NCBI RefSeq assembly: GCF_044324875.1
Contig: NZ_CP172185.1
From: Escherichia coli
Lineage (GTDB): Bacteria; Pseudomonadota; Gammaproteobacteria; Enterobacterales; Enterobacteriaceae
DNA: 64,000 bases
Strand: one strand, 5' to 3'
The position numbers were made by a program, and so were the translations under genes. Positions 12,158 through 34,725 of this stretch are shown in pieces; position 1 is the stretch's first letter, and the number at the start of each line of letters is the position of its first letter. Under the pieces are notes generated by a model, which was not told where the DNA came from, made no database searches, and saw only the letters and a program-made list of their open reading frames with translations.

Positions 12158-12168
12158 AATTCATATAA

Positions 12169-12195: not shown

Positions 12196-12354
12196 GTTTC
12201 AGGACGCCACGATTTAAGCGTCCTGCCGCCAAATCAATTCTACCGAACTCAACCAGACTCCCCCCACATCAACCCCATTGTGTGGGTATAATTGCGGGTA
12301 TACCCCAGTTCGACAGAATTTGTACCCTCTTTAACGCATTCAGAAGGCTGAACT

Positions 12355-13617: not shown

Positions 13618-13620
13618 TAA

Positions 13621-13650
13621 GCAGTCCGGGCTGATTGCCCGGACTGCTTT
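13621..13650 (+). terminator. Hairpin after integrase gene
   Basis: GCAGTCCGGGC-tgatt-GCCCGGACTGC followed by TTT. Confidence 0.5.
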
Positions 13651-14068
13651 AACTGATTATTTTTCTTTGTAAATGATGACGAAGATTGATGTTCTGGCAA
13701 GTTACTCCGGCTTCCATTAAAGTCCCTTCGTCATGTTCTTCAGGCTATTTATGACTGTGATTAGCACCAGGAATATCTGGTTTCCATGAGAGCAGGTAAT
13801 AACCCCCGGTGTTTTCGGCTGTTCTGGTATCCTTGTCCAACGCAGGCAGTCATTATAAACGGTAAAAAATGTATTCACTGTTATGAAATCAATAGTCCTG
13901 ACGTACTGTTGAATGTGCTTGCGTTCTGAACCTTGTACAACCAGTACATTTGATACCGAATTATAAGCAAAACATTGCATCCAACTTTTTCAATATGGAC
14001 AATAGTTGTCCATATGGTGGTTTTATATTCGATAAATCAATGGATTTCATTGAGTCATAGGACTGGTA

Positions 14069-17000
14069 ATGGATGAAAATGCTTTAGGGTTTGCCTCATA
14101 CTGGCGCAACTCGCTTGCGGACGCTGAGTCAGGAAAGGGCAGTTTTGAACGGAAAGACGCCAAAAATTTCACTCACTGGCATGGGATAGCGGCGGGACGT
14201 CTTGACGAAGCGATTGTCAGTAAATTTTTTAAGGGAGAAAAAGACGATGTCGAAACGGTCGATGTCATCTTGCGCCCAAAAGTTTATTTCCGGTTACTGC
14301 AGCATGGTAAGGACCGTTCTGCAGGTGCGCCTGATATTGTTACCCCGATAGTGACGCCAGCCTTGCTAAGCCGTGAGGGTTTTTTATATCCGACGCCAGC
14401 GACCTCCATTCCCAGAGACCTGCTTGAACCTTTGCCAAAAGGAGCATTTTCGATTGGTGAGATTGGGCAGTATGACAAATACAAGACGACCCATACCACG
14501 TTCTCTATCAACTTTGATGACAGCGTTGATAAGACTGCCGAAACGGATGAAGAACGGGAAGAACGATATGCAGCCTTGCAGCAGGAGTGGCGTCAATATC
14601 TGGATGATTCAGAGAGGCTGCTGAAGAACGTTGCCGGCGACTGGATTAAAAATCCTGAGCAATATGAACTCGCTGAGCACGGTTATATTGTTAAAACGGC
14701 GCAATCTGGCGGTGCCAGTTTCCATATCCTTTCTCTTTATGATCACCTGCTTGTTTGCAATAAGGATGTGCCGCTCTTCAATCGATTCGCCTCGCGAGAG
14801 GTTCATGCTGCAGAGTCTTTGCTGGCCCCTGGAGCAAAATTCAGCGACAGGCTTGGACACTCCGGAGATAAGTTTCCGCTGGCAAAGGCTCAGCGCGATG
14901 CCTTAAGCCATTTTCTGGATGCTAAACATGGCGATATCCTTGCTGTTAATGGCCCTCCTGGAACCGGAAAAACCACGCTGGTGCTTTCTATCATCGCCAC
15001 GCAGTGGGCCAGAGCGGCTCTCGAAAAATCTGAGCCTCCGGTTATTATCGCGACTTCAACGAATAACCAGGCTGTAACGAACATTATTGAGGCATTCGGG
15101 AAAGACTTTTCGCAAGGTTCAGGTGCGATGGCCGGGCGATGGTTGCCAGAGCTGAAAAGCTTCGGCGCTTATTTTCCCTCAGGCAGCCGTAAAGCTGAAG
15201 CAGCCAAAAAATATCAAACTGAAGATTTCTTCAACCAGGTTGAGTCAAAAGAGTATGTAGAAGATGCACTGCTGTTTTATCTGGAAAAGGCTAAGGCAGC
15301 CTTTCCTGAAAAAGAGTGTTCATCCCCTGAAAAGGTCATTGAACTCCTGCATGGTCAGTTGGCAGCAAAATCCGAGCAACTGATAAGACTGAACGCAACA
15401 TGGCAAAAGTTAAGCCAGATTCGGGCTGCGCGTGAGCTTATTGCTAATGATATTGAGCAATATCTCAATAATTTAAATAAATTACTTTCCGGACAAGAAC
15501 AAAAAATCACTCTACTGAAGAGTGCTAAAACGGAATGGAAAAAATATCGCGCCGGTGAATCACTGATCTATTCATTATTTTCCTGGCTTCCGGCGGTTCG
15601 CAGTAAGCGACAGTACCAAATACAGCTGTTTCTCGAAGATAAATTAGGTGCGCTGATTGCAGGAAATCAATGGTCTGATCCTGAAACTATCGAACGTAAT
15701 ATTGATGGGCTGCTCAATTCCGCTGAGCGCGAGCAAACAACATACCGGCAGCAGATTGACTCCGCCCATGAAATCATTCTTAAAGAACAGCAGGCGGTTC
15801 AGGAGTGGCAGAGACTGGCTCTTGATTTAGGGTATGAGGGCGACGAGGAACTGAGCTTCTCACAGGCCGATGAACTGGCTGATACGCAGATTCGCTTCCC
15901 TGCATTTTTACTGACGACTCACTACTGGGAAGGTCGTTGGCTGATGGATATGGCCAGCATTGATGATCTGCAGGAAGAGAAGAAGAAAAAAGGCGCTAAA
16001 GGGGTAACCGCCCGTTGGCAACGTCGAATGAAACTCACTCCATGTGTGGTGATGACATGCTATATGCTGCCCGGCAATATGCAGATAAGTGAGCACAAAG
16101 GACAGCGTAAATTCGAGAAAAGTTATTTGTATGATTTTGCCGATTTACTCATTGTCGATGAAGCCGGGCAGGTGCTTCCTGAAGTGGCTGCTGCCTCGTT
16201 TGCATTAGCTAAGAAGGCATTAGTGATTGGCGATACGGAGCAGATCCCGCCAATATGGAGTATTGCTCCTGCGATTGATATCGGTAACATGCTGGCGGAA
16301 AAAATTCTGTCTGGCAGTACGCAAGAAGAGATTACCGAGAAATATACGGCAATCGCAGACCTTGGTAAAAGTGCCGCATCTGGCAGCGTTATGAAAATAG
16401 CGCAGTTTGCTTCGCGCTATCAATATGATCCCGAACTGGCTCGTGGTATGTACCTATATGAACACCGCCGGTGCTACGACAATATTATTGGATACTGTAA
16501 TACGCTCTGCTATCACGGTAAGTTGTTGCCTAAAAGAGGGCGTGAAGAGAGCAATTTAATGCCCGCAATGGGGTATCTCCATATTGATGGTAAAGGAGAG
16601 CTGGCAAGTAGTGGAAGTCGATATAATTTGCTTGAGGCTGAAACGATAGCGGTCTGGTTGGCAGAGAACCAGCAAAATATTGAAGCGCATTACGGTAAAT
16701 CGCTTCATGAAGTTGTCGGTATTGTGACGCCTTTTAGCGCTCAGGTATCCACTATCAAACAGGTGCTGGGCAAACAAGGTATCAGTACAGGCACGAATGA
16801 AAAGTCGCTCACAGTGGGCACCGTGCACTCTCTTCAGGGAGCGGAAAGAGCGATTGTGATATTCTCGCCAGTCTATTCAAAACATGAAGACGGCGGGTTT
16901 ATTGATAGCGATAACAGCATGCTGAATGTTGCAGTCTCCCGTGCGAAGGACAGTTTTCTGGTCTTCGGCGATATGGACCTGTTTGAGGTCCAGCCAGCCT

Positions 17001-17584
17001 CATCGCCACGGGGATTACTGGCAAAATACCTCTTTGAGTCAGAGAAGAATGCGCTCTCTTTTGATTATAAAGAGCGTAAGGATTTAAAAACCGCCGGGAC
17101 CAAAATCTACACACTTCATGGTGTGGAGCAACATGATAATTTCCTGAATCAGACATTTGAAAATACCAGTAAACACATCACGATAGTTTCTCCATGGCTG
17201 ACCTGGCAAAGGCTGGAGCAAACCGGTTTTCTTGATTCCATGATTGCGGCGTGTTCACGTGGAATTAACGTCACGATAGTCACTGACAGAAGCTACAACA
17301 CTGAACATAATGATTTTGAGAAGCGAAAAGAGAAGCAGCAGAACTTTAAAGCGGCGCTGGAGAAACTGAATGCGCTGGGTATTGCTACAAAGCTGGTAAA
17401 CCGTGTTCATAGCAAAATTGTTATTGGTGATGATGGTTTGCTGTGCGTGGGATCGTTCAACTGGTTTAGTGCGACACGGGAAGCGCGATATGAACGATAC
17501 GATACATCAATGGTTTATTGCGGTGATAACCTGAAGGGTGAGATTGAGGCTATTTATAATAGTCTTGAGAGGCGGCAGGTTTAG
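14069..17584 (+). CDS. Large fusion protein: unknown N-terminal domain + Upf1-like SF1 helicase core + C-terminal PLD-family (single HKD) nuclease domain; candidate defence protein
   Basis: 1171 aa; Walker A GPPGTGKT (~aa 295), Walker B/motif [11 protein letters not shown] (~aa 695), motif V-like [11 protein letters not shown], motif VI-like VAVSRAKD, then HSKIVIGDD (HxK(x)4D) near aa 1114; first cargo gene after island integrase. Confidence 0.9.
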
Positions 17585-17600
17585 AGCAGGAATGGTGAGT

Positions 17601-17637
17601 AGCCATCTTACCGATCGTTTTCGAGCGTAAGATGGCT
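17601..17637. other. 11-bp inverted repeat hairpin between convergent genes (possible bidirectional terminator)
   Basis: AGCCATCTTAC ...15 nt... GTAAGATGGCT between stop of helicase-PLD gene and stop of minus-strand sulfatase-family gene. Confidence 0.35.
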
Positions 17638-17692
17638 GAATGGAATGGCTATTATTGCACAGTCCTTAATTATAACATTCATACCGACATGA

Positions 17693-19192
17693 TTATCTTC
17701 TGCCCGGAAGAATCAGAGGCTGTGGTTTCAGACTGTCTGCCGGTACATTCCTGTCTCCGTTAAAAACAATAACGGGTTCATTATCTTCGTCTGTCAGCGG
17801 ATTGAATGGCGGTATATTTTCAGTACGAATGCCGGTCAGCCACTGAAAAATACCTGCGAAATGACGGGCACTGATTTTTCTGCTGACGGACTGATGAGAC
17901 GTGATGTCACTGGCGGTAATAATCAGGGGAACGCTGTAGCCTCCTTGTATATGGCCATCATGATGAACAGGATTAGCACTGTCGCTGACCGACAGACCAT
18001 GGTCAGAAAAGTAAAGCATGGCAAAATGACGGGAGTGCCGGCGAAGGATACCATCAAGCTGACCGAGAAAGTTATCCAGTTTACTGATGCTGGCGAGGTA
18101 ACAGGCAATCTTTCGGGGATACTGCTCCAGGTAATGATTCGGCCAGGAGTTAAGTCGGTCACACGGATTCGGATGAGAGCCAATCATGTGCAGGAATATC
18201 ACCTTCGGAGAGGATTTATCCGCCAGTGCACGTTCTGTTTCCTGTAACAACAACATGTCATCCGTTTTACGGGAAGCAAAGCTGCCTTTCTTGAGGAAAA
18301 CGGTATGCTCCGCATCAGAAGCAATAACAGAGATGCGTGTATCATGCTCCCCCAGTTTTCCCTGATTGGATATCCACCATGTGCTGTATCCTGCTTTTGC
18401 TGCCAGCGCCACCACGTTGTTGCCGGAGTCAGGGTTCTGCTCATAGTCATAAATCAGTGTCCGGCTCAGGGAAGGTACGGTACTGGCTGCTGCCGATGTA
18501 TAGCCGTCAATAAATAAACCGGGAGCCGTATTCAGCCATGGTGTGGTTGGCACGGGATAGCCATATACCGACATATAATCCCTGCGCACACTCTCACCAG
18601 TAACGATAACAATCGTGTCATACAACGGTGTTCCCGGCAGGATTTTCCAGTTGTCAGCCCCGTGCTGACTCAGTTGTTTATAACGCTGCATTTCACGCAA
18701 TGTGTCAGTTGTTCCCACAACAATTCCTTTAACCATCCGCAACGGCCAGCTGTTTACAGAGCATAATACGAACAGCAGCAGTGCCAGCCAGTTACGGTGA
18801 CCGCGGTGGTGTGTCCGCCAGAAAATCACCATGAATACCAGAATCGCGGCACTGACCAGAAAATGATAAACAGGAATCATCCCGGTAAACTCTGCAGCCT
18901 CATCAGCCGTGGTCTGCAGCAACGCGACAATAAAACTGTTGTTGATTTTACCGTACGTCATACCCGCAGGCGCATACAGTGCACAACAGAACAGAAATAA
19001 CAGCGTTGTAATGGATGTGAGGGTATTTCTGTGTGCAAGGAGCAGAAGGAGAAACAGAAGCAGCACATTTCCTGTGGCATTCTTCTCAGTGTATCCGCAT
19101 GCAATTGTGGTTATCACAGAAATAACAAAAAAGAATAAAAACAATAAAATCCGGGGTGTGTCGCCCGGACAAAACAGTTTTCTGATATTCAT
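17693..19192 (-). CDS. Sulfatase-family integral membrane enzyme (phosphoethanolamine-transferase-like)
   Basis: 499 aa; hydrophobic N-terminal TM region followed by soluble domain with HMIGSHPNPCDRL-type motif typical of alkaline-phosphatase/sulfatase superfamily transferases. Confidence 0.55.
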   Translation of the reverse strand: MNIRKLFCPGDTPRILLFLFFFVISVITTIACGYTEKNATGNVLLLFLLLLLAHRNTLTSITTLLFLFCCALYAPAGMTYGKINNSFIVALLQTTADEAAEFTGMIPVYHFLVSAAILVFMVIFWRTHHRGHRNWLALLLFVLCSVNSWPLRMVKGIVVGTTDTLREMQRYKQLSQHGADNWKILPGTPLYDTIVIVTGESVRRDYMSVYGYPVPTTPWLNTAPGLFIDGYTSAAASTVPSLSRTLIYDYEQNPDSGNNVVALAAKAGYSTWWISNQGKLGEHDTRISVIASDAEHTVFLKKGSFASRKTDDMLLLQETERALADKSSPKVIFLHMIGSHPNPCDRLNSWPNHYLEQYPRKIACYLASISKLDNFLGQLDGILRRHSRHFAMLYFSDHGLSVSDSANPVHHDGHIQGGYSVPLIITASDITSHQSVSRKISARHFAGIFQWLTGIRTENIPPFNPLTDEDNEPVIVFNGDRNVPADSLKPQPLILPGRR

Positions 19193-19373
19193 CGGAGTAT
19201 ATCGACAACATTATTATGAAGAGAACAGGATAATAAAAATCAGAAATTATCTGTAAAACAGATAACAGACAACCCTGCAGCAATAGACTGCAGGGTGTTT
19301 CTGTTTAATTGCAGAAGATATACAATTATATTAATTACAGAATATTCGTGATTATCTCTCGGGAACAGTGTTG

Positions 19374-20114
19374 TCAGAAGTTATAAGTCACACCAAGCAT
19401 GATGTCATGACTTTTAACATCAACTTCTGACTTATATTTATCGCCCCACTCGTCCTTGTAACTCACACTGCTGTCACCTGCATCAAGATAGCGATAGCTG
19501 AGGTCCAGAGCGATATCCGGGGTTACGTCATAGCGGACACCCGCGCCAAGGTTCCATGCGAAGTTGTCAGCAGAGCCTGAACGTGACAACGATTCGCGAC
19601 CACTGCTTCCGTACTCATAATCCCAGGTACTGATACCGGTTGTTTTCTGGTGAATTCTGGCGTAGCCAATCCCTGCAGATATCCAAGGTGTGAATGCGCT
19701 GTCATTCCGGAAGTCATAGTACGCATTCAGCATTAGTGTGTTGACTGACACCTCATTCTTCAGGTCATCACGCCAGTAACCACCTGACCAACTGTCTTTA
19801 TCTACGTTATACTTCGAATCAGCTTTTCCACGAGCGTAAAACTCCAGTTCTGTACGAACCGGAATACTGAACTGCGGATAAAAATCATAACCAGCCGCGA
19901 TACCACCACTGAATACCGTATCATGGTCATCGCCGCCTTTATACTTTGACGTTTCTTCCTCATCTCCTGACAGGAAACGCTGGTCTGAAAGTGACACCAC
20001 AGAGGTACCGGCTTTACCGGTCAGATAAAAACCGCTTTTACCTTCCTCAGCACCTGCATTTGCTGCAAATACACAGGCTGCGGCCACCACTGAAACAGCA
20101 AAAACCTTTTTCAT
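19374..20114 (-). CDS. Outer-membrane beta-barrel protein (OmpA-like transmembrane barrel family)
   Basis: 246 aa; signal peptide MKKVFAVSVVAAACVFAANA; alternating aromatic/hydrophobic strands; C-terminal ...GVTYNF terminal Phe. Confidence 0.6.
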   Translation of the reverse strand: MKKVFAVSVVAAACVFAANAGAEEGKSGFYLTGKAGTSVVSLSDQRFLSGDEEETSKYKGGDDHDTVFSGGIAAGYDFYPQFSIPVRTELEFYARGKADSKYNVDKDSWSGGYWRDDLKNEVSVNTLMLNAYYDFRNDSAFTPWISAGIGYARIHQKTTGISTWDYEYGSSGRESLSRSGSADNFAWNLGAGVRYDVTPDIALDLSYRYLDAGDSSVSYKDEWGDKYKSEVDVKSHDIMLGVTYNF

Positions 20115-20569
20115 TTCAATTATCTCCGTTATTGCTCCGTTGCTGCAAGCAGTACTCAGTGCATTTTAAAACCCGCCATGCTATAGCCTCAATCGAATAA
20201 AATCGATCGAATCGATCGATGATATCGATCGTCATTAACCAGAAATTTTTATCGTATTCAGTCAGCACAGACACAACAAATGCATGCCATGCAGGCAGCC
20301 ATGCCCCGTCGCGACAGATGGTAGCAGTGGGCTGGCGAAGAGCAGAATTAATAAAATTTGTTTATTCTGTCAGGAGATAAGGTGTCACCTGTTCATGAAC
20401 ACAATTAAGGAAGAGACATACATGAGCTGACTGGCAGTCCAGAGTGCATGCGGTTACAAGCCGGAAAGGTGAACCGGTATAACCAGTGAGCAGAGTTTGT
20501 GAAGGGGGGATATAAAAAAGCCCACTGCATGGCTGCGGGTAAAGAGTCAGTTATTTCCGGCGTTTTTCA

Positions 20570-20950
20570 AGGTAGTTGTCGCCTGATGTAATAAAATTAC
20601 GTTATGCCGCTTCTTTTTCTGGATTCAGATAAACTGCCTGAATGAGTTCCCAGTCACGCAACTGTTTGCTCCAGCGCTCAGGATGACGCTTGCGAGCTTC
20701 GCGATAAACTTTTTTTCTGGCTTCCAGTATTTGTGCATCAATTCCGCGATGGCGTTCATCCGGAGTAACATACTTAATACCGCTGTGCTTGTGTTCCAGG
20801 TTGTACCATTACGTGAACTTGCTTAACCAACTTCTGGCTTCATCTATGGTTCGAAAACCATTCTCCGGCCACCATGAACAATACTTAATCGTCCGGAAGA
20901 GCGATTCGGAATAAAGAAGTGTTACTGGCAGTTCTTTCATCGCATCAGTG
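20570..20950 (-). pseudogene. IS3-family transposase C-terminal remnant
   Basis: Minus-strand translation ...GIKYVTPDERHRGIDAQILEARKKVYREARKRHPERWS... and ...NGFRTIDEARSWLSKF... resembles transposase C-terminus; no intact ORF. Confidence 0.45.
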
Positions 20951-20969
20951 AAAACCAGCAGGGCACTGC

Positions 20970-21391
20970 TCACCAGAGCAACACAGGAAAGTGAACCCGA
21001 ACAAAAGTTCCTGTACCATTTTCTCCCAGCAGACGTGAGGCTTGTTCCAGTGACGCTGGTATACGTCCCAGCCGGACATCAAGTGCGCCGATGGCTATTG
21101 CCTGAAATCGCATCGTACAGCAAATCACCAACAGGACACCGACAGACATTAAAGGTAACCCCCTGTAATCCAGTAGTTCCGCCAGCCAGCGGTCATTTAG
21201 GGAGTCAGAAAACCAATCGCCAGAATCGTGCCCGGAAAGGCATAACCCAGCGACGCCCCTCTCATCACACCGCGCCTGAACAGTGGCATAGCGTTGAGGA
21301 ATTCCGGGCATTCCAGACTACGAGCAGACTGACAAAAATTACGACAAAGCGTTGAAGGAAGCCAGCGCGCGGACTGACAGGACTTTACCAT
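20970..21391 (-). pseudogene. Degraded ABC-transporter permease fragment
   Basis: Fragments with EAA-loop-like sequence (IPASLEQASRLLGENGTGTFVRVHFPVLL) in two frames; no intact gene. Confidence 0.4.
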
Positions 21392-21440
21392 AAAAACACA
21401 GGCTAACCGCGCCTGCGTTTTTAATGACGGATAAACAGAA

Positions 21441-23420
21441 TCAGGTGCCGATTATGCCGCCGTCGGCTTTTACGATAACGACAGTTGAGGAGCGCGGACG
21501 ACCAGCCTTATCGCCGTCAGGCCAGCTTGATACTGCCGTCGGATGCTGCGGATCGCTAAGCCCTTCGCTTGGCTCGCCAGGGTGCTGGATGTTAATAAAC
21601 AGCGTCCGGTTATCCGGAGTGAACGCGATGCCGGTGATTTCGCAGCCGCGCGGGCCGGTCAGGAAGCGGCGGAACTCATTGGTACCGGGGATCGTCGCCA
21701 CCATCTGGTTGTTGCCCATGCCTTTGTAATCTTTACTATTGATGGTTGATGACGACACGTCGGTCTGGATCCATAGCACGCCGCGGTGATCGAAGCTCAG
21801 GCCATCGGCGCTGCCGAATTCCGCCCCCTTCATGCTGCCTTTGGTTTCCGGTTTGTCCGTATCGGTGCGACCGCCCATCACAAGAATATCCCAGGCAAAC
21901 TGCAGCGCGGTCGGGTCACCGTTATGCTCCAACCAGTGAATGATGTGGCCGTAAACGTTTTTGGCGCGCGGGTTGGCCGCATCCACTGGCGCTTTTCCTT
22001 CCTTACCGCGATCGCTGTTGTTGGTGAGCGTGCAGTAAACGCTGCCGGCGTGATATGGATCGACCGCAATCCACTCCGGGCGGTCCATTTTAGTGGCCCC
22101 CACGGCGTCTGCCGCCAGACGGGTTTTAATCAACAGGTCGCCCTGGTTTTCAAACCCTTTACTGGCGTCGAGCCCATTTTGTCCGAACACCAGCGGTAGC
22201 CACTCGCCTTTGCCGTCGTCGTTAAATTTCGCCACGTACAGAGTGCCTTTTTCCAGCAGGTGCATGTTGGCTTTGCGATCCTGCGGGTTGAATTTTCCTT
22301 CCGAGACAAATTTATATATGTATTCGAATTTCTGGTCATCGCCCATATAGACCACAACGCGGTTATCCGGGGCAATTGTCACCGCTGCGCCTTCGTGTTT
22401 GATGCGACCAAGCGCGGTGTGCTTGCGCGGCACTGAATGCGGATCGTATGGATCGATTTCCACCACCCAGCCGAAGCGGTTCGGCTCGTTCGGCGTGGCG
22501 TCGACGCTGAACCTTTTATCCACTTCGTTCCAGCGGTAAGAGTCGTCGCTCCCGCTGATACCGTAACGTTTTTCCAGCGGGTTCATCTCTGCTTTTTTTA
22601 CGAAAATATCGGACCAGTTCTCTTCACACGTCAGATAGGTGCCCCACGGCGTAAATCCGTTGGCACAGTTCTGCATGGTGCCGAGAATGATTTCGCCTTT
22701 CGGATCGTCAACTGTTTGCATCAGTGGGTTATGCAGCGCCGGACCGGTGATTTTCATCGGCGTGTTAACGGTGATGCGGCGTGCGAAAGATGACGGGCGC
22801 ACCACTTCCCAGCCCAGGGGCACTTTTTTTACTTCAATGACCGACACGCCCATCGCGTTCTGGCCTTTAAGAGCTTTATCGGCGCTCCAGTTGGCATCGC
22901 CATCTTTAAACAGTAGACCGTTATCGATGTATTCATGGTTTATGGCAAGCAGGCCGTGATCGGAGCTGTTCCCGCCCTGCGGCAGGCTAAACCACGCCAT
23001 GCCGTCGTGGTGCATCCCGGCCTGCGCCGCCTGTTCTTCCGTGGTGTTGCTACCGTCGGTTTTAAAAACCGGCAGATTTCCGGCAATCCCGGTGGCGTCG
23101 CCCCATTTGTAGAAGGGCTTCGCGATGTATCCTTCCGGCACGATAACGGTATCTTCCGTGGAAACCGGCAGGCTGGTGAAACCGAGCGTCGTCGCTTTGC
23201 CGAGGTTACCGCTTGCTTTGGAGACCACTTTCGCCAGCGCGTTTTCCTGTTTCAGCAGAAATGGGAACGCTGCCGCGGCACCGGCGACCGTGCCGGCCTG
23301 TAACAGACGGCGGCGTGACAAATAAACTTCCGCCACCTGCGAAAACGCGCGGTTATCGCTCGGGTTACTGATTTCTTCACTATGCTCACGTTTGAATAAA
23401 GTTTTTAACGGTCTGCCCAT
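21441..23420 (-). CDS. Tat-secreted PhoX-like (DUF839-type) phosphatase
   Basis: 659 aa; twin-arginine signal SRRRLLQAGTVAGAAAAFPF; size and composition consistent with PhoX family; family call not verified. Confidence 0.5.
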   Translation of the reverse strand: MGRPLKTLFKREHSEEISNPSDNRAFSQVAEVYLSRRRLLQAGTVAGAAAAFPFLLKQENALAKVVSKASGNLGKATTLGFTSLPVSTEDTVIVPEGYIAKPFYKWGDATGIAGNLPVFKTDGSNTTEEQAAQAGMHHDGMAWFSLPQGGNSSDHGLLAINHEYIDNGLLFKDGDANWSADKALKGQNAMGVSVIEVKKVPLGWEVVRPSSFARRITVNTPMKITGPALHNPLMQTVDDPKGEIILGTMQNCANGFTPWGTYLTCEENWSDIFVKKAEMNPLEKRYGISGSDDSYRWNEVDKRFSVDATPNEPNRFGWVVEIDPYDPHSVPRKHTALGRIKHEGAAVTIAPDNRVVVYMGDDQKFEYIYKFVSEGKFNPQDRKANMHLLEKGTLYVAKFNDDGKGEWLPLVFGQNGLDASKGFENQGDLLIKTRLAADAVGATKMDRPEWIAVDPYHAGSVYCTLTNNSDRGKEGKAPVDAANPRAKNVYGHIIHWLEHNGDPTALQFAWDILVMGGRTDTDKPETKGSMKGAEFGSADGLSFDHRGVLWIQTDVSSSTINSKDYKGMGNNQMVATIPGTNEFRRFLTGPRGCEITGIAFTPDNRTLFINIQHPGEPSEGLSDPQHPTAVSSWPDGDKAGRPRSSTVVIVKADGGIIGT

Positions 23421-23842
23421 TGCGGTTTCCTTTCAAAAAATCGATTTCAAGGGGAATCATTTTTATGCACGTGAGTCTACGGAAAGATTGTTACGGAAAT
23501 ATAACAATTGTCATAAAAAACCGGCGATAAAATCATCTATGGTCGGGACGCGGTTTCAGGTATGATGTGAGGCTAGAATTCTGAACGCTCTCTTTTGTTG
23601 AGCATATATGGACGTCCCGGGTGAGGCAAGTACTGGTTCGATGCGGTTTGCGACCATATATCCGGCGTCGTTAGTAGGTTCAATGACCTGCGCCATGATG
23701 TTATCCGGGCCCTGTTTCCTAATCACTACACCGGTATTTGATTACCCAGGTCAACTTCAGACTGTTACAGGGGCGGTAGCCGTTATCTCATCAGTGAATG
23801 TAAACTCAGTTAAAAATATTTTCTATAACTTACTGTTTTTCT

Positions 23843-24052
23843 TTAATTCATCACAACGGCCTTCTGCATATTAAAATCAATACTATCGCTCAAAACACGC
23901 CAGATGATTCTTGTCAGCTTATTCGCCAGCGCACCAGTGGTTTTCAGGAACCCTCGACGGGCTTCCATCCTTTGCAGACAAATACTCAGACTGTCAGTGA
24001 GCTTTTTCACACAGCGCATTACAGACTGAAATGGCACACTGAATTTGGTCAC
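23843..24052 (-). mobile_element. IS110-family transposase C-terminal fragment
   Basis: ...LKTTGALANKLTRIIWRVL... resembles IS110-family C-terminus; truncated. Confidence 0.4.
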
Positions 24053-24104
24053 CTGAACAGAGGTGATATGCTCACCTCAGAACAAGACTGGTGCCCTAAT
24101 GAAA

Positions 24105-25310
24105 AAAAGAAATTTTAGCGCAGAGTTTAAACGCTAATCCGCCCAACTGGTTGTTGACCAGAACTATACGGTGGCAGATGCCGCCAAAGCTATGGATATC
24201 GGCCTTTCCACAATGACAAGATGGGTCAAACAACTGCGTGATGAGCGTCAGGGCAAAACACTAAAAGCCTCTCCGATGACACCAGAACAAATCGAAATAC
24301 GTGAGCTGAGGAAAAAGCTACAACGCATTGAAATGGAGAATGAAATATTAAAAAGGCTACTGCACTCTTGATGTCAGCCTCCCTGAACAGTTCTCTATAA
24401 TAGGGAAACTCAGGACACGTTATCCTTTGGTCACTCTCTGTGTAGTGGATCGGTAATTCAGGACACCTCATTTTCACTGTTAATGTTAAAAAGTGAAAAT
24501 GAGGTGATGCATGATCAAAACTCGTCGGACTAAACGTACCTTTTCCCCGGAGTTCAAGCTTGAAGCTATCGAACAGGTGGTTAAATACCAGCGTGATGTC
24601 AGAGAAGTCGCGCTGGCACTCGAGCTCAACCCTGACCATTTGCGTAAATAGATACGGTTGTATAAGCAGGAACTTCAGGGTATTGAGCCCGCTGGTAATG
24701 CTATTACTCCTGAACAACGCTAAATTAAGCAGCTTAAAGCGCAGATAAAGCGCCCTGAGATGGAAAAAGAAATACTAAAGCAGGCTGCCGTGCTGATGAG
24801 CGAAATCCCCGGGGAAACTGTCGCGCTAATCACACAGCTGAAAGCAAAGTGGCCAGTGCGGGTTCTTTGTCATTTATTCGGTATTCACCGTAGCATTTAT
24901 TACGCGCAGGTGAAGCGTCCTGTTAATGTGCAAAGAATTGAATTACGAAGTCGGGTGAGGGCTGTCCATGCTCTCAGTCGTGGCGCAGTCGGTAGCCGGG
25001 CAATCAGTCAGATGTTGCGCCATAGTGGCGTTGATGCAGGTCGGTGGCTGGCACGACGACTGATGCGGGAATGCGGGCTGACAAGTCGACAGCCAGTTAA
25101 ACATCACTACCGGGTAAACGAAGACAAAAGTCCGCCATTGCCAAATTTACTGAACCGGCAATTTCACCCCGCCGCACCAAACCGCGTCTGGTGCGGCAAC
25201 ATCAGTTTTATTCGCCTGCAGGACAAATGGTGTTATCTCGCACTCGTTGTTGATTTATATTCACGGCGGATTATCGGTTCAGCCCTCTCATTAACCGCTG
25301 ATGCTGAGTT
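24105..25310 (+). mobile_element. Nested IS3-family remnants: IS911-like orfA fragment followed by a second IS3-family orfA/orfB with in-frame stops, truncated by IS66 insertion
   Basis: [52 protein letters not shown] (orfA-like with stop); MIKTRRTKRTFSPEFKLEAIEQVV...; orfB part ends ...WCGNISFIRLQDKWCYLALVVDLYSRRIIGSAL at the IS66 boundary. Confidence 0.6.
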
Positions 25311-25347
25311 GTAAGCGTACAGCGAGGGCCGTATTGACGGGGATGTG

Positions 25348-26886
25348 TTATTCAGCTGGCAGTGCTATGCGCCACGGAAGCAGTTCGCTGACCCGGTTGA
25401 CCGGCCAGTCTGCTATGACGCCAAGCACATGGCGAAGGTAGCTTTCTGGATCCACGTCATTCAGTTTGCACGTCCCTATCAGGCTGTACAGTAGCGCTCC
25501 CCGCTCACCACCATGGCCAGAGCCGAAGAACAGGAAGTTTTTACGACCCAGACTTACCGCCCGCAGGGCATTTTCAGCGATGTTGTTGTCGATTTCCACC
25601 CAGCCATCGTTCGCATAGTACGTCAGTGCCGGCCACTGGTTAAGTGCGTACGCGAACGCCTTCGCCAACTCTGAGTGTCGCGACAGGGTCTTCATCTTTT
25701 CACGCAACCAGCTTTCCAGGGATTTCAACAGCGGTTTCGTTTTTCGCTGACGTTCAGCAAGCCGCTGCTCTGCCGGCATTCCCCTTATATCCGCCTCTAT
25801 GGCGTACAACTGACCGATCTGCTCCAGGGCTTCTTCCGTCAGTGCTGACGGGATGCGGACGTGCACATCGTGGATCTTTCGGCGGGCATGAGCCCAGCAG
25901 GCAGCTTCCGTTATCCCACCATTGCGATACAGCTCGTTGAACCCGGCGTACGCATCCGCTTGCAGCACACCGCTGAAGCAAGCAAGATGAGTCTGCGGAT
26001 GGATGCCTTTTCTGTCCGGGCTGTAAGCGAACCACACTGCAGGTGCCAACGCTGACCCGGCATTGCGGTCATCACGAACATACGCCCACAACCGCCCGGT
26101 CTTCGTCTTCTTATTACCCGGCATCAGTACCTGGACCGGGGTATCATCGGCATGGAGTTTGCCGTCAGTCATGACATAGCCATGAAGCGCCTCTTCCAGC
26201 GGAGACAGCAGCCGGCAGCATGCATCCACCCAGCCCGACAGCAGTGAACGGCTCAGCTCCACACCTTGCCGGCCGTATATTTCTGACTGGCGATACAGCG
26301 GGGTGTGCTCTGCATACTTCGAGGTCAGCACGCGGGCCAGCAGCCCCGGTCCGGCGATACCCCGCTCGATGGGCCGCGAAGGTGCAGGTGCCTGCACGAT
26401 GGCATCGCACTGAGTACAGGCATGTTTTTCCCGTACCGTCCGGATAACCCGGAAGGCGCTACGCATCAACTCCAGCTGTTCGGCGGTATCCTCGCCCAGA
26501 TAGCTCAGTGAACCGCCGCAGTTCGGGCAGCACGGCGCCGCAGGCAACAGTCGCTTTTCGTCACGGGGTAGTGATTCAGGGAACGGCTTACGGATGCGGG
26601 TCTGACGCAACGGACGCTGTACTGCCGGGTCATACACCCTACCAGTCAGCGTATCGCTCTCTTTCTGAAGCCGGTTCAGATCGGCTTCCATTTGTGCGAT
26701 ACGGCGGGAGACTTTTTCGGAACGACTGCCGAAGTTCATCCGGCGGAGTTTATCCAGCTGCGCCTGCAGATGGTCTATTTCGCGCTCCCGGTTGCTCAGC
26801 TTTTCCTGCAGGGCGTGGATCAGCGCTTCCTGTTCGGCCAGGCGCTGTTTCAGCAGGAAGATGTCGTCAGAAGAGATGTCGTTCAT
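25348..26886 (-). CDS. tnpC: IS66-family transposase TnpC
   Basis: 512 aa; leucine-zipper-like N-terminus, CxxC zinc-finger-like motifs, DDE core. Confidence 0.85.
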
Positions 26887-26935
26887 AAGCCCGTATTTTA
26901 CCGGGCTTATTCTGTGACAACCAGGATAAAGAGAT

Positions 26936-27283
26936 TTACAGCATGGTCAGGGAGGTCAGCAGCCGCTTAGGCTGTCGCCAGTCGATACCTTCCAGCAGCA
27001 TCGCCAGCTGCGCCTGTGTAAGGAACACTTTGCCATCACGGGCTGACGGCCAGGCGAAGCGCCCACGCTCCAGCCGTTTGGTCAGGAGGCACAGTCCGTC
27101 ACCGGTGGACCACAGCAGTTTAACCTGACTGCCGCTGCGGCCCCGGAAAATGAAAACATGGCCGGACATGGGATCGTCTTTCAGCGCCGTCTGTACTTTC
27201 GCAGCCAGGCCGTTGAAGCCATTTCTCATATCGGTGATACCGGCAACCAGCCAAATTTTGGTCCCGGAAGGTAAAGGGATCAT
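26936..27283 (-). CDS. tnpB: IS66 Orf2 (TnpB)
   Basis: 115 aa; [31 protein letters not shown] typical IS66 Orf2. Confidence 0.85.
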
Positions 27284-27681
27284 CGCTTCAGTTCCTGTAT
27301 CAGCAGAGTCAGGAGCTTTTCGCTGACATTGCCATTGAAGCGGAGCGTCCCGTGCCGGAACGTTACCTCACAGCTGATACTGAGGGTTTCCGGGTCCTCT
27401 GCGAGCGATTCTGGCTGTTCGGCAGCTGCATCGAGAGTCACAGGAAGTAGCTGGGGGCTCTCTGAAGAAGGTAATAGCAGCTTTCCCTCGCGCCATTGTT
27501 GTCGCCATTTGAACAACAGATTGGCGTTAATGCCATTTTCAAGAGCAAGTTTTGAGATGGATATCCCGGGTTCACAGGAGGCAGCAACGAGCTGCTGTTT
27601 AAATTCGGGAGGATAATTAGGGCAGCCTTTTCGCCTGCCGGGAGTCACATTTTTCTGCATATCTGACACTTTGGTTCCCAC
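27280..27681 (-). CDS. tnpA: IS66 Orf1 (TnpA)
   Basis: 133 aa; overlaps tnpB start by 4 bp. Confidence 0.8.
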   Translation of the reverse strand: MGTKVSDMQKNVTPGRRKGCPNYPPEFKQQLVAASCEPGISISKLALENGINANLLFKWRQQWREGKLLLPSSESPQLLPVTLDAAAEQPESLAEDPETLSISCEVTFRHGTLRFNGNVSEKLLTLLIQELKR

Positions 27682-27748
27682 TACTTATTTGGTGGACACC
27701 ACTTTGTCTAATTCGTCAGATTCTGACCAGACGGTTCAGGCTGTACGC

Positions 27749-29833
27749 TTACGCCTGACCGGTGTCTCTGGTGACATATTCCGGAGCTCCGGAGAGAGTA
27801 AAGGTAACGCGATCATCGGCAGAAGCATCTCCATACTGCAGATGCCCGTCGTTGGGGATCATGGCCAGTTTGCCGTAATAGCGATACACATTGTATTCAT
27901 CCTGTGTATAGCCAAAGAAGGACTGATTATTCAGTTGTGAACCCGACAGGCTGACAAACTCGCTGGCAAGAAGATGACTTCCCGTATTATCCAGTTTGTT
28001 CGCGTCAATCAGCAGATTATTACCGGCCGAAATTCTGGCATCCCCCCCTGTTGCACCAACATCGACGCGTGTTGTGCCAGTCAGAAATTTCCGGGTGGCT
28101 CCCTTTTCAGTCGGAACGGCCCATGCCTCAAAACCACCACCGGCAGTACCGCTCCAGGACTTCACATAATATCCCCATCCATTTTCACCTAAATCGCCCA
28201 CTCTGACTGAAACAGAATTTACACCATCAGGTACTGCGACATTCTCAACCGGAATGTATGATTTTGTCTCATTTATACCCTCCCGCTGATTCAGTAAATG
28301 TCCGGTTCTGATGGTGATATCACCGCGGGTGGTTTCGATATTCCCGGAGGTATTAATCACTTCAGCATTCGCGGCACCACTGACATCTTTCTGCATCACC
28401 AGGCTGTAACCCGCCAGCATATCGCCGTGATGGTTCCGGATGGTGCTGGCAAACAGCGAGAGGTTATTGCCCGCATACAACAGTGCGGTGTTAATGACTG
28501 CCCCGGCGACCGTTAACACCAGACTACCCGTCGTGCCGGTAAAACCGTCGAGAGTGATATCTCCCCTGCTGGTCAGGCTGACGTCCCCGCCTGCCTGCAG
28601 GCTGCCGCTGGCATTCATCGCAATCCCGCTGCCGCTCAGTGCCGTGGTGCCGTTGCCGGCGGTCAACTGGCCATTGTTGGTCAGCCTGCCTGCAGCATTC
28701 AGCGTGATACCGTTGCCCTGCAATGTGGCGCCATTGGTAATATCACCCTGGCTGCTGACGGAGAGTTGTTTATTCGCGGCGATAACGCCCTGTGCGGTCA
28801 AACCACGTGTGAGCTTCAGCGTCAGGTTACCGAGTGCAACCAGCTGGCCCGCGCCGCTGAGCGAGACCATTTCAGCAAGCATATCACCGCCGCTGAACAC
28901 CTTCCCGCCGGCGTTGTTCAGGCTGTTCCCTTTTATTGTCAGGCCCTGATTACCCAGCAGCGTGCCGCTGTTGGTGATGGTCTGCGTGTTGACGTTCAGT
29001 TGTGCAGCCTGGAACAGGCCACGGTTGGTCAGACTGTTACCTGTGAGCGTTGCCTGATTCGCCGCCATCACAGTGCCATTACCGGCAAGCTTCGCCACGT
29101 TCAGCAGCAGGTCAGTGGCCTGTAGCCAGCCACTGCCACTGTAGTCCGGCGTGGTGAACGTCAGCTCACCGCCGGAAAGAATCTTGCCACTGTTGTGGGC
29201 CTGCGTTGCCGCGCTGAGCGTGGTTTTACCGTTGCCCTGAATGGTGCCGTCATTAGTCAGCACAGGTGCAGAAAGCGCTGATACGTTCTGACTGAGAAGC
29301 ACACCGCTGGTCTGGTTGGTCAGGGCATTCAGCAATGTAAGAGTCAGCCCGCTGTCGCCCTGCACACGACCTGAGTTGGTCAGCGAACTGGCGGTGATTC
29401 GGTTATCCGCCCCCTGAAGCTGCCCACTATTGCTGATGTCTCTGGCGTTGACGTTTAATGTACCGCCTGTCAGCATTTTACCGTGCTGTTGCAGATTACC
29501 ACTGAGTGTCACATTCAGGCTGTTAACACCACTGATTTCGCCACCGTTGCTGAGCGAATCACCATTCACTTCCAGCGTCTTCGCGCTGATTAATCCCTTG
29601 TTACCCAGCACTTTCCCGGTAAGGCGGGCATCGCCCAGGGCGGTAATTTTGCTGCCGGTGGCAGCAATAACATCGCCACTCAGGGTCAGAGCCAACTCCA
29701 GCGCACTCTGAACAGCACCGCTGCTGGTCAGGCTGCTGGCATCCAGAGTAATGTTCTGCCCCTGAATCCGGCCGCTGTTGGTCACATCTCCTGCGCTCAG
29801 CGTCAGCGAGTTCTGGCTCGATCCGCGCACCAC
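27749..29833 (-). pseudogene. Fragment of a large filamentous-haemagglutinin/CdiA-like repeat protein (two-partner-secretion exoprotein), truncated at both ends
   Basis: 694 aa of degenerate ~20-aa repeats rich in TLSG/LTNSG/IQGNG/NAL motifs; no signal peptide or TPS domain; 3' end abuts IS66 copy 1; 5' end abuts the GC-rich block. Confidence 0.6.
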
Positions 29834-29872
29834 TTATCCCGAACTGCGTCAGCAGTTGATCGGAGGTACACC

Positions 29873-30424
29873 ATGAAACGCATTCTGACCCGTGGCCTGG
29901 CGCTGCTGATGCTGATGCTCGCCGGCTGCAGCATCGAGGTCACCGAGTACCGGCAGCAGCAGCCCGCCCTCGACATCTTCCACTATTTTCAGGGTCGAAC
30001 CGAGGCGTGGGGGATGGTGCAGGATCGCCGCGGTAAACAGCTGCGCCGCTTCCATGTAGCGATCGATGGCGACGTCGTCGGCGACACCCTGACGCTCCAT
30101 GAGCGCTTTGTCTATGACGATGGCGAGAAACAGCAGCGGGTGTGGCGCATTCGCCGCACCGGCGATAACCATTATCAGGGCACCGCCGGGGATATCGAAG
30201 GCGTGGCCAGCGGCCAGGCGGCAGGCAATGCCTTTCACTGGCGCTACAGCATGAACGTCGAGGCCAGCGGCAGCCGGTGGCTGCTGCACTTTGACGACTG
30301 GATGTTCCTGCAGGACGGCAGCCATTTGTTTAACAAAACCGAGATGAAGAAATTCGGCATTACGGTGGCCACCGTGACCCTTTTCTTTACCCGAACCACA
30401 GCAGAAGAGAGGACAGCGCCATGA
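29873..30424 (+). CDS. Lipoprotein (DUF3833-like)
   Basis: 183 aa; lipobox MKRILTRGLALLMLMLAGCS; overlaps next gene start by 4 bp. Confidence 0.55.
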   Translation: MKRILTRGLALLMLMLAGCSIEVTEYRQQQPALDIFHYFQGRTEAWGMVQDRRGKQLRRFHVAIDGDVVGDTLTLHERFVYDDGEKQQRVWRIRRTGDNHYQGTAGDIEGVASGQAAGNAFHWRYSMNVEASGSRWLLHFDDWMFLQDGSHLFNKTEMKKFGITVATVTLFFTRTTAEERTAP

Positions 30425-31380
30425 ACACGCAACCTGTCATTGGGATCAGCGGATGTTTAACCGGCTCAGCCGTGCGATTCGACGGCGGGCATAAGCGTAT
30501 GGGCTTTGTGATGGATGAGCTCGCGCAGTGGGTGGCGTTTAAGCCCGTCTGCCCGGAGATGGCGATCGGCCTGCCCGTTCCCCGCCCGGCGCTCCGGCTG
30601 GTGCAGACCCCGGTCGGGGAGATCCGCATGCGCTTCAGCCACGCCCCGCACGAGGATGTGACGGAGAAGATGGCCGATTTCGCCAACGCCCATCTGGCAA
30701 CCCTGGGCGAGCTGTCGGGCTTTATCGTCTGCGCCAAATCGCCGATCTGCGGGATGGAGCGCGTGCGGCTGTATGATGAAAAAGGCAATCGCGGGCGTAA
30801 GGAAGGCGTGGGGCTGTTTACCGGCGCCCTGATGGCGCGCTACCCGTGGCTTCCGGTGGAAGAGGATGGCCGGCTGCACGATCCGCTGCTGCGGGAGAAT
30901 TTTGTCGAGCGCGTCTTCGCCCTGCATGAACTCAACGCCCTGCGCGCCCGCGGCCTGACCCGCCACGGCCTGCTGGCCTTTCACAGCCGCTACAAGCTGC
31001 AGCTGCTGGCTCACCACCAGGCGGGCTACCGCGAGATCGGCCCCTTCGTCGCCTCGCTGCATGAATGGGAGGATCTGGAGGCTTTCTTCGAGGTCTATCG
31101 CGAAAAGCTGATGGCGATCCTCAAGCGGCCCGCCTCTCGGAAAAACCACACCAACGTGCTGATGCATATTCAGGGTTATTTCCGCGACCAGCTGAACAGC
31201 CGCCAGCGCGGCGAGCTGCGGGAGGTGATCCTCAACTATCGCGCCGGGCTGCTGCCGATCCTCGCGCCGCTGACGCTGCTTAAGCACTATCTGGCCGAGT
31301 ATCCGGATCGCTACCTGCAGGCGCAGAACTATTTTGACCCCTACCCGCAGGATCTTGCCCTGCGCCTGACGGTGAACTGA
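30421..31380 (+). CDS. YbgA-like protein (DUF523/DUF1722 architecture)
   Basis: 319 aa; N-terminus VIGISGCLTGSAVRFDGGHK typical of DUF523. Confidence 0.55.
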   Translation: MNTQPVIGISGCLTGSAVRFDGGHKRMGFVMDELAQWVAFKPVCPEMAIGLPVPRPALRLVQTPVGEIRMRFSHAPHEDVTEKMADFANAHLATLGELSGFIVCAKSPICGMERVRLYDEKGNRGRKEGVGLFTGALMARYPWLPVEEDGRLHDPLLRENFVERVFALHELNALRARGLTRHGLLAFHSRYKLQLLAHHQAGYREIGPFVASLHEWEDLEAFFEVYREKLMAILKRPASRKNHTNVLMHIQGYFRDQLNSRQRGELREVILNYRAGLLPILAPLTLLKHYLAEYPDRYLQAQNYFDPYPQDLALRLTVN

Positions 31381-31385
31381 GGGAA

Positions 31386-31620
31386 CCTGGGCCAGCTGCC
31401 CGGCGGCGCTGCGCTTGCGCGGGCCTGGGAGGGGATCCCGCAGGCCTCCTCAGGAACGTAGGCCGGATAAGGCATTTATGCCGCCATCCGGCACAACCAC
31501 AGGTATGGAGCTTGAAGTGTCCTGCCCGGCGGCGCTGCGCCTGCCGGGCCTGGGGGGTATCCCGCAGGCCTCCTCAGAAACGTAGGCCGGATAAGGCATG
31601 TATGCCGCCATCCGGCATAA
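31386..31620. repeat. Tandem duplication (~120-bp unit) each carrying a REP-type palindromic element
   Basis: Two copies of CCTGCCCGGCGGCGCTGCGC...GGGATCCCGCAGGCCTCCTCAG(G/A)AACGTAGGCCGGATAAGGCAT(T/G)TATGCCGCCATCCGGCA. Confidence 0.7.
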
Positions 31621-31692
31621 ATGGAGCGCACCAGTCGTAGCCCGGCTAAGCGTAGCGCCAGCCGGGAACGCTCCTTCGACAACGCTATCGCA

Positions 31693-33075
31693 TCAGAACC
31701 ACGCCTCAAACATCCCGCCGACGTTCAGCGAATCCAGCTGCTGGTCTTTGGTGCCGTTGACCTTAGCGGTATGCTCGTTGTCCACCTGACCGCCGGTCAC
31801 GTAGAAGCGCAGCATCGGACGGAACTCCGGCCCCATGCCGATGGCGATGTTCTGCGACAGCGTCAGCTTCCAGCCGTGGTTATCCCCGCCCTGGTCGTAG
31901 TCCACGCGCTGGTAGCCCGCTTCCAGCCAGGTGGAGTGCACGTCGTTCCAGAAGTACATCGGCCGCACGATGGCACCGTAGTTTTTGCGGTTGTCGGTAT
32001 TATCTTTGCCGTTGTCGTAGTCGTGGAAGGCCAGCAGATATTCCACCTGCGCCTGCTGGGTGAACTTATGGCTGCCCTCGAAGCTAGCGTAGACCGTGGT
32101 CAGGTCGTCGGTTTTGTTGTAGACGCTGTTATCCGAGTTATCGGAGTAGCGCAGGATCACCTTGTTCACCCCTCTGTCGTTGGTGTGGCTCAGCACCAGG
32201 CCGCCCTGCCAGGCTTCGAGACGCGCGTCGCTGTCCACCGCCTTCGAGTCAAAGCCGTAGTTGGCGTACACCTCGACGTCGATCGGCCCGGCCTTGATGT
32301 TGTGGGTTTTGGTGGTCAGCGCGTAGTGGCCGTTGTCCCCGGTGTCGGAGCTGCCGGTACAGGTGATACGCGACGGGTTGGTCTCGTCGGCCATCACTTC
32401 CGGGCTACAGGATTTCACCTGCGACACCGCCGCCACGTCGAACTGCACGCCGCCGATATCAAAGTTCTTCACCCCGGCGCCCTGGCCGTCGTGGTTCATC
32501 CAGAAGTAGTCGTTGATCCCCTGTTGCGGACGCTGGTGGAAGTCGCGGCCGGCCCAGATATAGGCGTTGGGATTGGATTCCAGCACGTTGGTGACGCCGA
32601 CGTAGGCCTTCTTCAGGTTAACCTCGTCGCTCCAGTGGTCGAACATGACGTTGAGATCCCAGATAGCCCCCTGCGCGCTTTTGAAGGCTTTGCTGATCTG
32701 GAATTCGCCGCCGTTGCTTTCGTTGCCCAGACGGCCGATCGCCGAGGCGCCGTTATAGGAGCCGTCGACGCCGACATATTTCTGGTCGCCGGTCTGGAAA
32801 TGGGCGCCATAGCGGGCATAGCCGCTGAACTTGAGGCCGAACGGAATGGCCATATCCGGCGAGGCGGCGGTGGTCTGTGGGTTGGTAATGACGTCGACCT
32901 TTTTGTCGGCCGCGGCGTCAATTTTCGCCTGGCGGTCGGCCAGCGCTTTATCAACGGCTTTGGCGACGATGGCGTCGATCTGTTCCTGAGTAAATTCTTG
33001 CGCCATTACAGAGGTAAGCGGAAAAAACGCGGCGATAACCGCCATGGTTAATGGAAGTTTTTTTATCATTGTCAT
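31693..33075 (-). CDS. LamB-family sugar porin with N-terminal coiled-coil extension (ScrY-like)
   Basis: 460 aa; signal peptide then AQEFTQEQIDAIVAKAVDKALADRQAKIDAAADKK extension; C-terminal ...GGMFEAWF. Confidence 0.65.
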   Translation of the reverse strand: MTMIKKLPLTMAVIAAFFPLTSVMAQEFTQEQIDAIVAKAVDKALADRQAKIDAAADKKVDVITNPQTTAASPDMAIPFGLKFSGYARYGAHFQTGDQKYVGVDGSYNGASAIGRLGNESNGGEFQISKAFKSAQGAIWDLNVMFDHWSDEVNLKKAYVGVTNVLESNPNAYIWAGRDFHQRPQQGINDYFWMNHDGQGAGVKNFDIGGVQFDVAAVSQVKSCSPEVMADETNPSRITCTGSSDTGDNGHYALTTKTHNIKAGPIDVEVYANYGFDSKAVDSDARLEAWQGGLVLSHTNDRGVNKVILRYSDNSDNSVYNKTDDLTTVYASFEGSHKFTQQAQVEYLLAFHDYDNGKDNTDNRKNYGAIVRPMYFWNDVHSTWLEAGYQRVDYDQGGDNHGWKLTLSQNIAIGMGPEFRPMLRFYVTGGQVDNEHTAKVNGTKDQQLDSLNVGGMFEAWF

Positions 33076-33405
33076 GAGTTTCTCAATATAGGTTAATTTT
33101 ATTCAGACAATAACCAGCCTATTCTGAGCTGACAGAATATGTCGCTATCATCAGAACAAGTTATTTTTTATTTTGTACGGTCACAGAGGCATTACACAAT
33201 TATCGCTACTCGCCCTCCCTCACTGATATTAAAAAGGTGGCACAATGGCAGAACCATCCGCGCGGCGGATTGTTCCTCTATAGACAGTCAAACAGATAGC
33301 CTTTCGGCACAGACAGCATAAATACAACACGAACAAATAAACGCTATTTCCCGGCAGCGGGCACACGGCGGAATACATGCCCCCGCAGGGGCATGTCAGC
33401 CAAAT

Positions 33406-34725
<1,320 letters not shown>

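Follow-up and report, generated by a model that had tools for sequence, protein, structure and literature searches.

The window, the whole 64-kb stretch of Escherichia coli DNA analysed here, contains a genomic island that begins at a tRNA-Phe gene (12082-12157). Behind the tRNA gene follow a P4-type integrase gene, genes for a helicase/PLD protein, an EptA-like sulfatase and an OMP, fragments of an ABC-permease and phoX. phoX is the last intact gene of this left module, and a stack of insertion sequence (IS) elements starts 185 bp upstream of its start codon. In matching genomes, the PGAP annotation gives a run of transposase pseudogenes between the PhoX-family gene and ISEc8. Numbering the layers of the stack from left to right, the features of the region are as follows.

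21441-23420, minus strand: phoX, PhoX-family alkaline phosphatase gene (Pfam PF05787, E=6e-166; PGAP 'PhoX family protein' in islands L001 and L006)
23593-23604, minus strand: right flank of layer 1, TGCTCAACAAAA, with 11 of its 12 letters agreeing with nt 6-17 of the right inverted repeat of IS911, TGGTCAACAAAA
23605-24026, minus strand: layer 1, whole, a relic of an IS1111/IS110-family element with the last ~61 transposase codons and the entire 238-bp 3' non-coding region
23605-23842, minus strand: 238-bp 3' non-coding region and right end of layer 1 (93% and 88% nucleotide identity to L004 and L005)
23724-23730, minus strand: putative bottom-strand guide segment TGTAGTG, which equals the left flank TGTAG plus TG
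23749-23755, minus strand: GTTGACC, putative guide segment for the top strand and the complement of the target GGTCAAC
23843-24026, minus strand: final part of the gene for the IS1111/IS110-family DEDD transposase, truncated near codon 284 of 344 (tblastn, NF033542 and blastn to L004:2503-2686)
24027-24438, plus strand: layer 2, IS911-like element, nt 1-412 of ~1250 (93.2-93.5% to L007 and others, PGAP 'IS911 family'; Pfam HTH_Tnp_1)
24439-25310, plus strand: layer 3, an IS3-family element that carries no specific PGAP name and is called IS3-x here, nt 1-872 of 1255 (95% to L002:2996-3867)
25311-27752, minus strand: layer 4, ISEc8 (IS66 family), 2442 bp (Pfam matches on all three proteins; PGAP 'ISEc8 family')
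27753-29833, minus strand: haemagglutinin-repeat (two-partner-secretion/CdiA-like) gene fragment, the first sequence of the right-hand module (Pfam PF05594)

A preliminary description of this DNA had placed three different IS remnants, IS110-like, IS911-like and a second IS3-family element, at 23840-25310. Nucleotide and amino-acid matches, Pfam and NCBIfam show that the three remnants are real and that their families had been correctly named. The right edge also stands, and the left edge moves out to 23605, a 238-bp non-coding tail having been missed.

Layer 1 is the 3' end of an IS1111/IS110-family element. By tblastn, residues 9-69 of the minus-strand reading frame at 23843-24052 match the C-termini of IS110-family transposases, with 85% amino-acid identity to a copy on a Klebsiella aerogenes plasmid. 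The NCBIfam model NF033542 is matched at positions 302-340 of 343 (E=2.8e-4), a score that, the sequence being a fragment, predictably stays under the full-length cut-off. In nucleotide alignments, 429 bp (23598-24026) are 93% identical to an intact element of K. aerogenes (L004) and 88% identical to a Rahnella element (L005), and the 93% identity to the intact 1349-bp K. aerogenes element holds over 422 bp. Intact relatives are 1349 bp long. Their sub-terminal repeats are ATGGACGCCC, their 5' end is short and, downstream of the transposase gene, they have a long non-coding region; in the K. aerogenes and Rahnella elements the ends read TGATGTG-ATGGACGCCC ... GGGGCGTCCAT-ATA, with a 7-bp extension on the left and a 3-bp extension on the right. 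The homology that assigns layer 1 to IS110/IS1111 covers the C-terminal 61 amino acids only, and the ends diagnostic of the IS1111 subgroup are found in these two relatives. Of the two sub-terminal repeats, the window copy keeps only the right one, GGGACGTCCAT, with one mismatch and followed by the 3-bp extension ATA. When seven copies are compared, the actual right end, ...GTCCATATA, falls at window position 23605, and across the same number of copies the 3' non-coding region has a mean column identity of 92%. Because only the 3' 422 bp survive, the element in the window is dead. For annotators, the unannotated sequence at 23605-23842 is IS-derived DNA and not phoX regulatory DNA.

To put the stack in context we used a comparison set of 5,426 complete E. 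coli genomes from RefSeq. None of them contained a copy of the IS1111-like element at 80% coverage or more, and the best E. coli copy, on a plasmid, reached 69% coverage at 87% identity. Unannotated relics of a right end of the layer 1 type, 98-157 bp long and 83-88% identical, lie directly behind an IS3-family pseudogene in F-type plasmids; such right-end relics occur beside IS3 fragments in ~826 E. coli plasmids, for example pAPHA_2017_1 (L009:2318-2598) and pUTI89.

Layer 2 begins exactly at the intact left inverted repeat TGAAATGGCACAC (TGAAATGGCACACTGAATTTGG...) of an IS911-like element. Like IS911, a member of the IS3 group of the IS3 family, it has a left inverted repeat, leader, orfA and orfA/orfB overlap, all colinear at 93% nucleotide identity. 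orfA (24099-24371) scores 24.9 bits with Pfam HTH_Tnp_1 against a cut-off of 24.1, and the start of orfB is present. Unlike IS911, layer 2 consists of nt 1-412 only and has a nonsense codon in orfA, where codon 13 is changed from GAA to TAA, giving a premature stop at 24135-24137. Its assignment to the IS3 family and to IS911 is carried by the left inverted repeat and orfA, with the DDE part and the right inverted repeat missing through truncation. The customary ISfinder threshold for isoforms is ~95% nucleotide identity, and the identity of layer 2 to IS911 lies under it.

IS3-x, the third layer, is defined by a nearly full 1255-bp copy adjoining papG in strain SCU-172 (L002), with the left inverted repeat TGTATAGTGGATCGGTAATTCAGGACACC and a matching right inverted repeat. 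The window copy starts exactly at an intact left inverted repeat, TGT(G/A)TAGTGGATCGG. Its IS3-family membership is shown by the inverted repeats of the SCU-172 copy, the helix-turn-helix of orfA, and HTH_21 and rve in orfB: the Pfam matches are HTH_Tnp_1 (E=6e-10), HTH_21 (E=7e-9) and the first 48 of 102 positions of rve. The NCBIfam model transpos_IS3 (NF033516) gives 151 bits against a cut-off of 160 for this truncated copy. orfA starts at 24511 and is interrupted by an in-frame TAG at 24649 and a TAA near 24720, and orfB reaches the middle of rve. The nearest named relative is ISKpn37, at 77% nucleotide identity. A reading of IS3-x as left-truncated, with an IS150-like end, was wrong, as the SCU-172 copy shows the left inverted repeat to be complete at 24439. 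A perfect 15-bp hairpin (CACCTCATTTTCACT / AGTGAAAATGAGGTG) at 24465-24507 spans the Shine-Dalgarno sequence before the orfA start; its left arm is mutated in the SCU-172 copy. The match of this hairpin to an Rfam plant miRNA model, the sole Rfam match obtained, has E=1 and is due to chance.

The copy of ISEc8 that closes the stack resembles the reference element in its length of 2442 bp, its tnpA-tnpB-tnpC order and its GTAAGCG ends; the three reading frames and both ends are intact. Its flanks differ, GCTGAGTT on the left (25303-25310) and GCCTGACC on the right (27753-27760), so that the 8-bp target duplication characteristic of IS66 elements is missing, the membership of the element itself not being in doubt. 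The missing duplication implies a later rearrangement, with the two flanks of ISEc8 coming from different places. Comparison with related islands reveals further losses next to the element. In the commoner island type (L001 and L011), ISEc8 is followed by the right end of IS3-x, with 112 bp missing at ISEc8, and in genomes of the ES1 type 37 bp (25274-25310) are missing to its left. Together with the absent duplication, the two deletions indicate that ISEc8 repeatedly eroded its surroundings. On its right, the haemagglutinin-repeat fragment is truncated at both ends and is annotated by PGAP as 'beta strand repeat-containing protein, missing N- and C-terminus'. Farther along the window, at 45810-47423, lies another IS66-family transposase gene (537 aa), adjoined by a TonB-dependent receptor gene (43033-45003); it belongs to a different family member, too divergent from ISEc8 to form a DNA repeat of 100 bp or more.

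At every junction of the stack, an intact terminal repeat of the incoming element abuts an internal position of the older one: the IS911 left inverted repeat at 24027, the IS3-x left inverted repeat at 24439 and the ISEc8 end at 25311. The proposal of the preliminary description that each remnant was truncated by the next is borne out by this arrangement. Right halves or other pieces of layers 1-3 were not found anywhere in the 64-kb window, nor were repeats of 100 bp or more. With the right halves missing, target-site duplications of layers 1-3 cannot be checked, and nested insertion is not formally separable from adjacent deletion mediated by IS ends. In the latter scheme, each IS would have landed in ordinary DNA to the right and deleted leftwards into its neighbour's interior, so that the junctions would be products of one-ended deletion and not of successive insertion of elements into one another. 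It could account for the fact that all three IS3/IS66-type layers keep one intact end in the stack without the other, it finds a parallel in the 112-bp and 37-bp deletions that demonstrably neighbour ISEc8 in L001 and the ES1-type genomes, and no intermediate with both halves was found. However, it needs three independent deletions, each ending inside another IS within 1.7 kb, and insertion of one IS into another by the same elements can be seen directly elsewhere: IS3-x lies within an IS66 tnpA (L010), an IS3 element within an IS110-type transposase gene of Yersinia ruckeri (L014), and IS1111-like elements within the right inverted repeats of IS3 elements. We consider adjacent deletion unlikely as the origin of the junctions, and infer that they arose by insertion.

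The fragments could also belong to a single known element, composite or compound, that is mobile as a whole, the condition that the preliminary description had named as its own refutation. The block is unchanged in tRNA-Phe islands (the window and TUM1886) and in selC islands (ES1, A65EC and GF43), as a mobile unit would be. Yet each of the three fragments has a separate full-length relative in unrelated contexts (L004, L007 and L002), all three are truncated and without a second end, and the 23605-25310 interval has no matching pair of ends. phoX and its neighbours accompany the block in every case, which marks the block as passive cargo of the island module. A composite element is accordingly a very improbable explanation, the fragments stemming from three different elements. 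More improbable still, to the point of being negligible, is that the assembly joined repeated IS sequences into a chimera: misassembly is a risk where IS elements abound, but identical junctions are present in 41 independently assembled complete genomes.

The 3' non-coding region of layer 1 and the sites occupied by its intact relatives suggest how such a stack might begin. IS1111-family elements have sub-terminal repeats of ~11-13 bp, 7-bp left and 3-bp right extensions and a 3' region that encodes a seekRNA (Siddiquee et al., PMC11187229). The intact relatives of layer 1 share this terminal architecture with family members that carry a 3' seekRNA, such as ISEc11, ISKpn4 and ISPa11 (PMC11187229). 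Like the family, they have sub-terminal repeats of ~10-11 bp and are found in a single orientation at a single position within a repeated mobile-element sequence; the window copy differs from intact members in that its 3' 422 bp alone survive. This position always falls between nt 5 and 6 of the right inverted repeat in IS911-type elements. On the left, the relatives are flanked by ...TGTAG, beyond which the DNA is unrelated (L004, L005, L015 and L016), and the right flank is TGGTCAAC..., running on into the IS3 element (L004, L005, L014 and L015). The conserved non-coding region contains the putative guide segment GTTGACC and, 25 nt later, TGTAGTG, the same top-then-bottom strand order as reported for the seekRNAs of IS1111.

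GTTGACC is paired with the flank GGTCAAC in five copies, including the window, L004:2687-2931, L005, L014 and L015. In E. coli D6 (L003:2871-3118) the segment is instead GTAAACC, and the flank at the same offset is GGTTTAC, its exact complement. The calculated probability of a chance 7-nt match at a fixed offset is ~6e-5 (4^-7). This co-variation suggests natural reprogramming of a seekRNA or bridge RNA that would normally target IS911-type right inverted repeats. The 7-mer matches of the non-coding region to the target were not significant as such, 379 of 1,000 shuffles doing as well, so that the argument for a guide rests on the co-variation in L003 and on the constant offset. The region has a minimum free energy z-score of +0.94, RNAalifold on four copies gave two compensatory pairs only, and an Rfam scan of 23300-25500 returned no match to a bridge RNA or seekRNA family. 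The PGAP label 'LysR' under the L003 match reflects an overlap of 12 nt only. The layer 1 element is, we think, probably an undescribed RNA-guided IS whose natural target is the tip of the IS911-type right inverted repeat (TGTAG^TGGTCAAC; TGTAGTGGTCAACAAAA), and the relic in the window appears, from its sequence, to retain a guide-RNA region programmed against that repeat.

Targeting of mobile elements by the IS110/IS1111 group is already known: IS4321 and IS5075 target the inverted repeats of Tn21, and ISEc21 targets the DDE codons of IS3-family elements (PMC11187229). The layer 1 element would add a member and not a new kind, its target being nt 5/6 of the IS911-type right inverted repeat as against the Tn21 repeats of IS4321 and IS5075. 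In a literature search we did not find a description of an IS110/IS1111 member that targets the IS911 right inverted repeat. If the reading is correct, this would be an IS hunting another IS, which would offer one mechanistic reason for the formation of such IS nests. It would also supply a natural guide/target pair in which an IS1111-type recombinase is directed at IS3-family ends, a further example of the RNA-guided IS110/IS1111 systems. These systems are now under development as genome-editing tools.

The flank of layer 1 in the window (23593-23604), with its near match to the IS911 right inverted repeat, may be a look-alike of the target, or else the remains of an even older IS911-type right end. 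To the left of 23593 we did not detect significant IS3 similarity. The segment 23480-23590 was considered as a decayed IS3-family right end, which would make a fifth layer, and was not accepted: three of four comparisons were at chance level, and in the remaining one the best local alignment, 16/18 to L005, was equalled by 1 of 300 shuffles.

The upstream region of phoX has a different history on another replicon. A 93.5%-identical copy of phoX is present at 2292-5088 of L008, the 71-kb E. coli plasmid pJNE25-005_2, and its upstream region resembles that of the window only up to 23504, at the equivalent of which it is cut by a different truncated IS3-family element. The phoX upstream region was thus hit independently on that plasmid. 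On the other side of phoX, between the OMP gene and phoX itself (20114-21441), an iron ABC-transporter permease is reduced to fragments. Strain XDL (L012) retains more of this transporter than the window, which indicates that the phoX module decayed on its other side too. A promoter and terminator scan found no more sites than in shuffled sequences and made no case for an IS-borne promoter driving phoX.

Within the comparison set, the whole stack occurs in 41 of the 5,426 genomes, which carry the same 2 kb at 99.4-99.9% identity. A wider group of 94 genomes has phoX, the IS1111 relic and nt 1-176 of the IS911-like element, and the 41 are those that continue as in the window. At least 19 of the 94 depart from the window at 24202; what follows there is an IS3-family sequence that is colinear but only ~78% similar, with iha/ICE-remnant surroundings. 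In XDL (L012:7297-8037) and at least 18 other genomes, colinearity with IS911 is kept and identity drops from 93% to ~78% after nt 176; judged by its sequence, the element of this class looks like a chimeric IS3-family element produced by recombination between two relatives. The stack arose a single time and is passed on as a block. The preliminary description had proposed a long-lived insertion hotspot. The layered remnants that it relied on are present; evidence for repeated independent hits at this site was not seen in this genome.

The right end of ISEc8 (27752/3) is a second branching point. In ~37 genomes it leads to the right end of IS3-x and an S6-family peptidase gene, and in 4 genomes to the haemagglutinin fragment, DUF3833, ybgA, a porin gene and xylA, as in the window. 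The four genomes with this right arm are all selC islands, and all lack 25274-25310. The left arm of the window (12108-27753, from the tRNA-Phe integrase to ISEc8) is 99.85-99.95% identical to the TUM1886 island (L011), and the right arm (25311-39000) is 99.9% identical to the ES1-type selC islands (L006). Divergence between the window and the ES1 type is 0.48% to the left of ISEc8 and drops to 0.1% on its right side. The combination of arms seen in the window was found in none of the complete genomes. Given the identities of the two arms to two island types, ISEc8 with the stack on its left is the join of two island arms. Of the variable sites within ISEc8, the window shares six (26124-27395) with TUM1886 and one (27506) with ES1, which fits a crossover near the right end of the element; in this three-sequence comparison every site is private to one sequence, so the sites alone cannot locate the crossover. 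These comparisons support a window that combines the left arm of a tRNA-Phe island type with a right arm otherwise seen in selC islands.

A recombination junction between island modules had been suspected at this locus from the layered remnants, and comparison with the junctions of related islands supports it, through the 94 and 41 genomes that share the left part and the whole of the stack, the split between ~37 and 4 genomes at the right end of ISEc8 and the identities of the arms. As a phylogenetic marker the stack is of practical use: the common junctions (24026/27, 24438/39 and 25310/11) indicate that the phoX module in the 41 genomes derives from one ancestor, and the breakpoints at 24202 and 27752 map swaps of arms between tRNA-Phe and selC islands. 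In the TUM1886 island, a PGAP 'tRNA-Ser' (L011:7613-7690) corresponds to the 3' 47 nt of tRNA-Phe and is preceded by an SPI-7-type ICE; ARAGORN finds no tRNA at this site. The partial tRNA-Phe looks like an attachment-site repeat left by tandem islands at one tRNA-Phe gene.

From the junctions and the genome comparison, an order of events can be proposed. An IS1111-family element would first have landed 185 bp upstream of phoX, at a site resembling what appears to be its preferred target, the IS911-type right inverted repeat. An IS911-like element would then have inserted within the IS1111-like transposase gene, followed by IS3-x at nt 413 of the IS911-like element and by ISEc8 at nt 873 of IS3-x. 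The right halves of the three older elements would have been lost by deletion or recombination at element ends, while the surviving reading frames gained stop codons, and ISEc8 may then have provided the homology or the breakpoint for an exchange of island arms. In islands of the TUM1886 type, the right end of IS3-x is followed by DNA that is not IS911. This, together with the 112 bp missing at ISEc8, implies that extra rearrangements occurred. On balance we hold it likely that serial transposition left the stack region as an inherited scar, itself without function.

IS relics nested in one another are common, and this stack is an ordinary case and no new system; dozens of public genomes already carry it, annotated as pseudogenes. 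It resembles the IS 'nests' or graveyards at the module boundaries of E. coli tRNA-associated islands (pheV/pheU and selC), from which it shows no substantive difference. In common with them it has truncated fragments of the IS3, IS66 and IS110 families between modules, near a P4-type integrase and a tRNA gene, and arms exchanged between islands at different tRNA sites.
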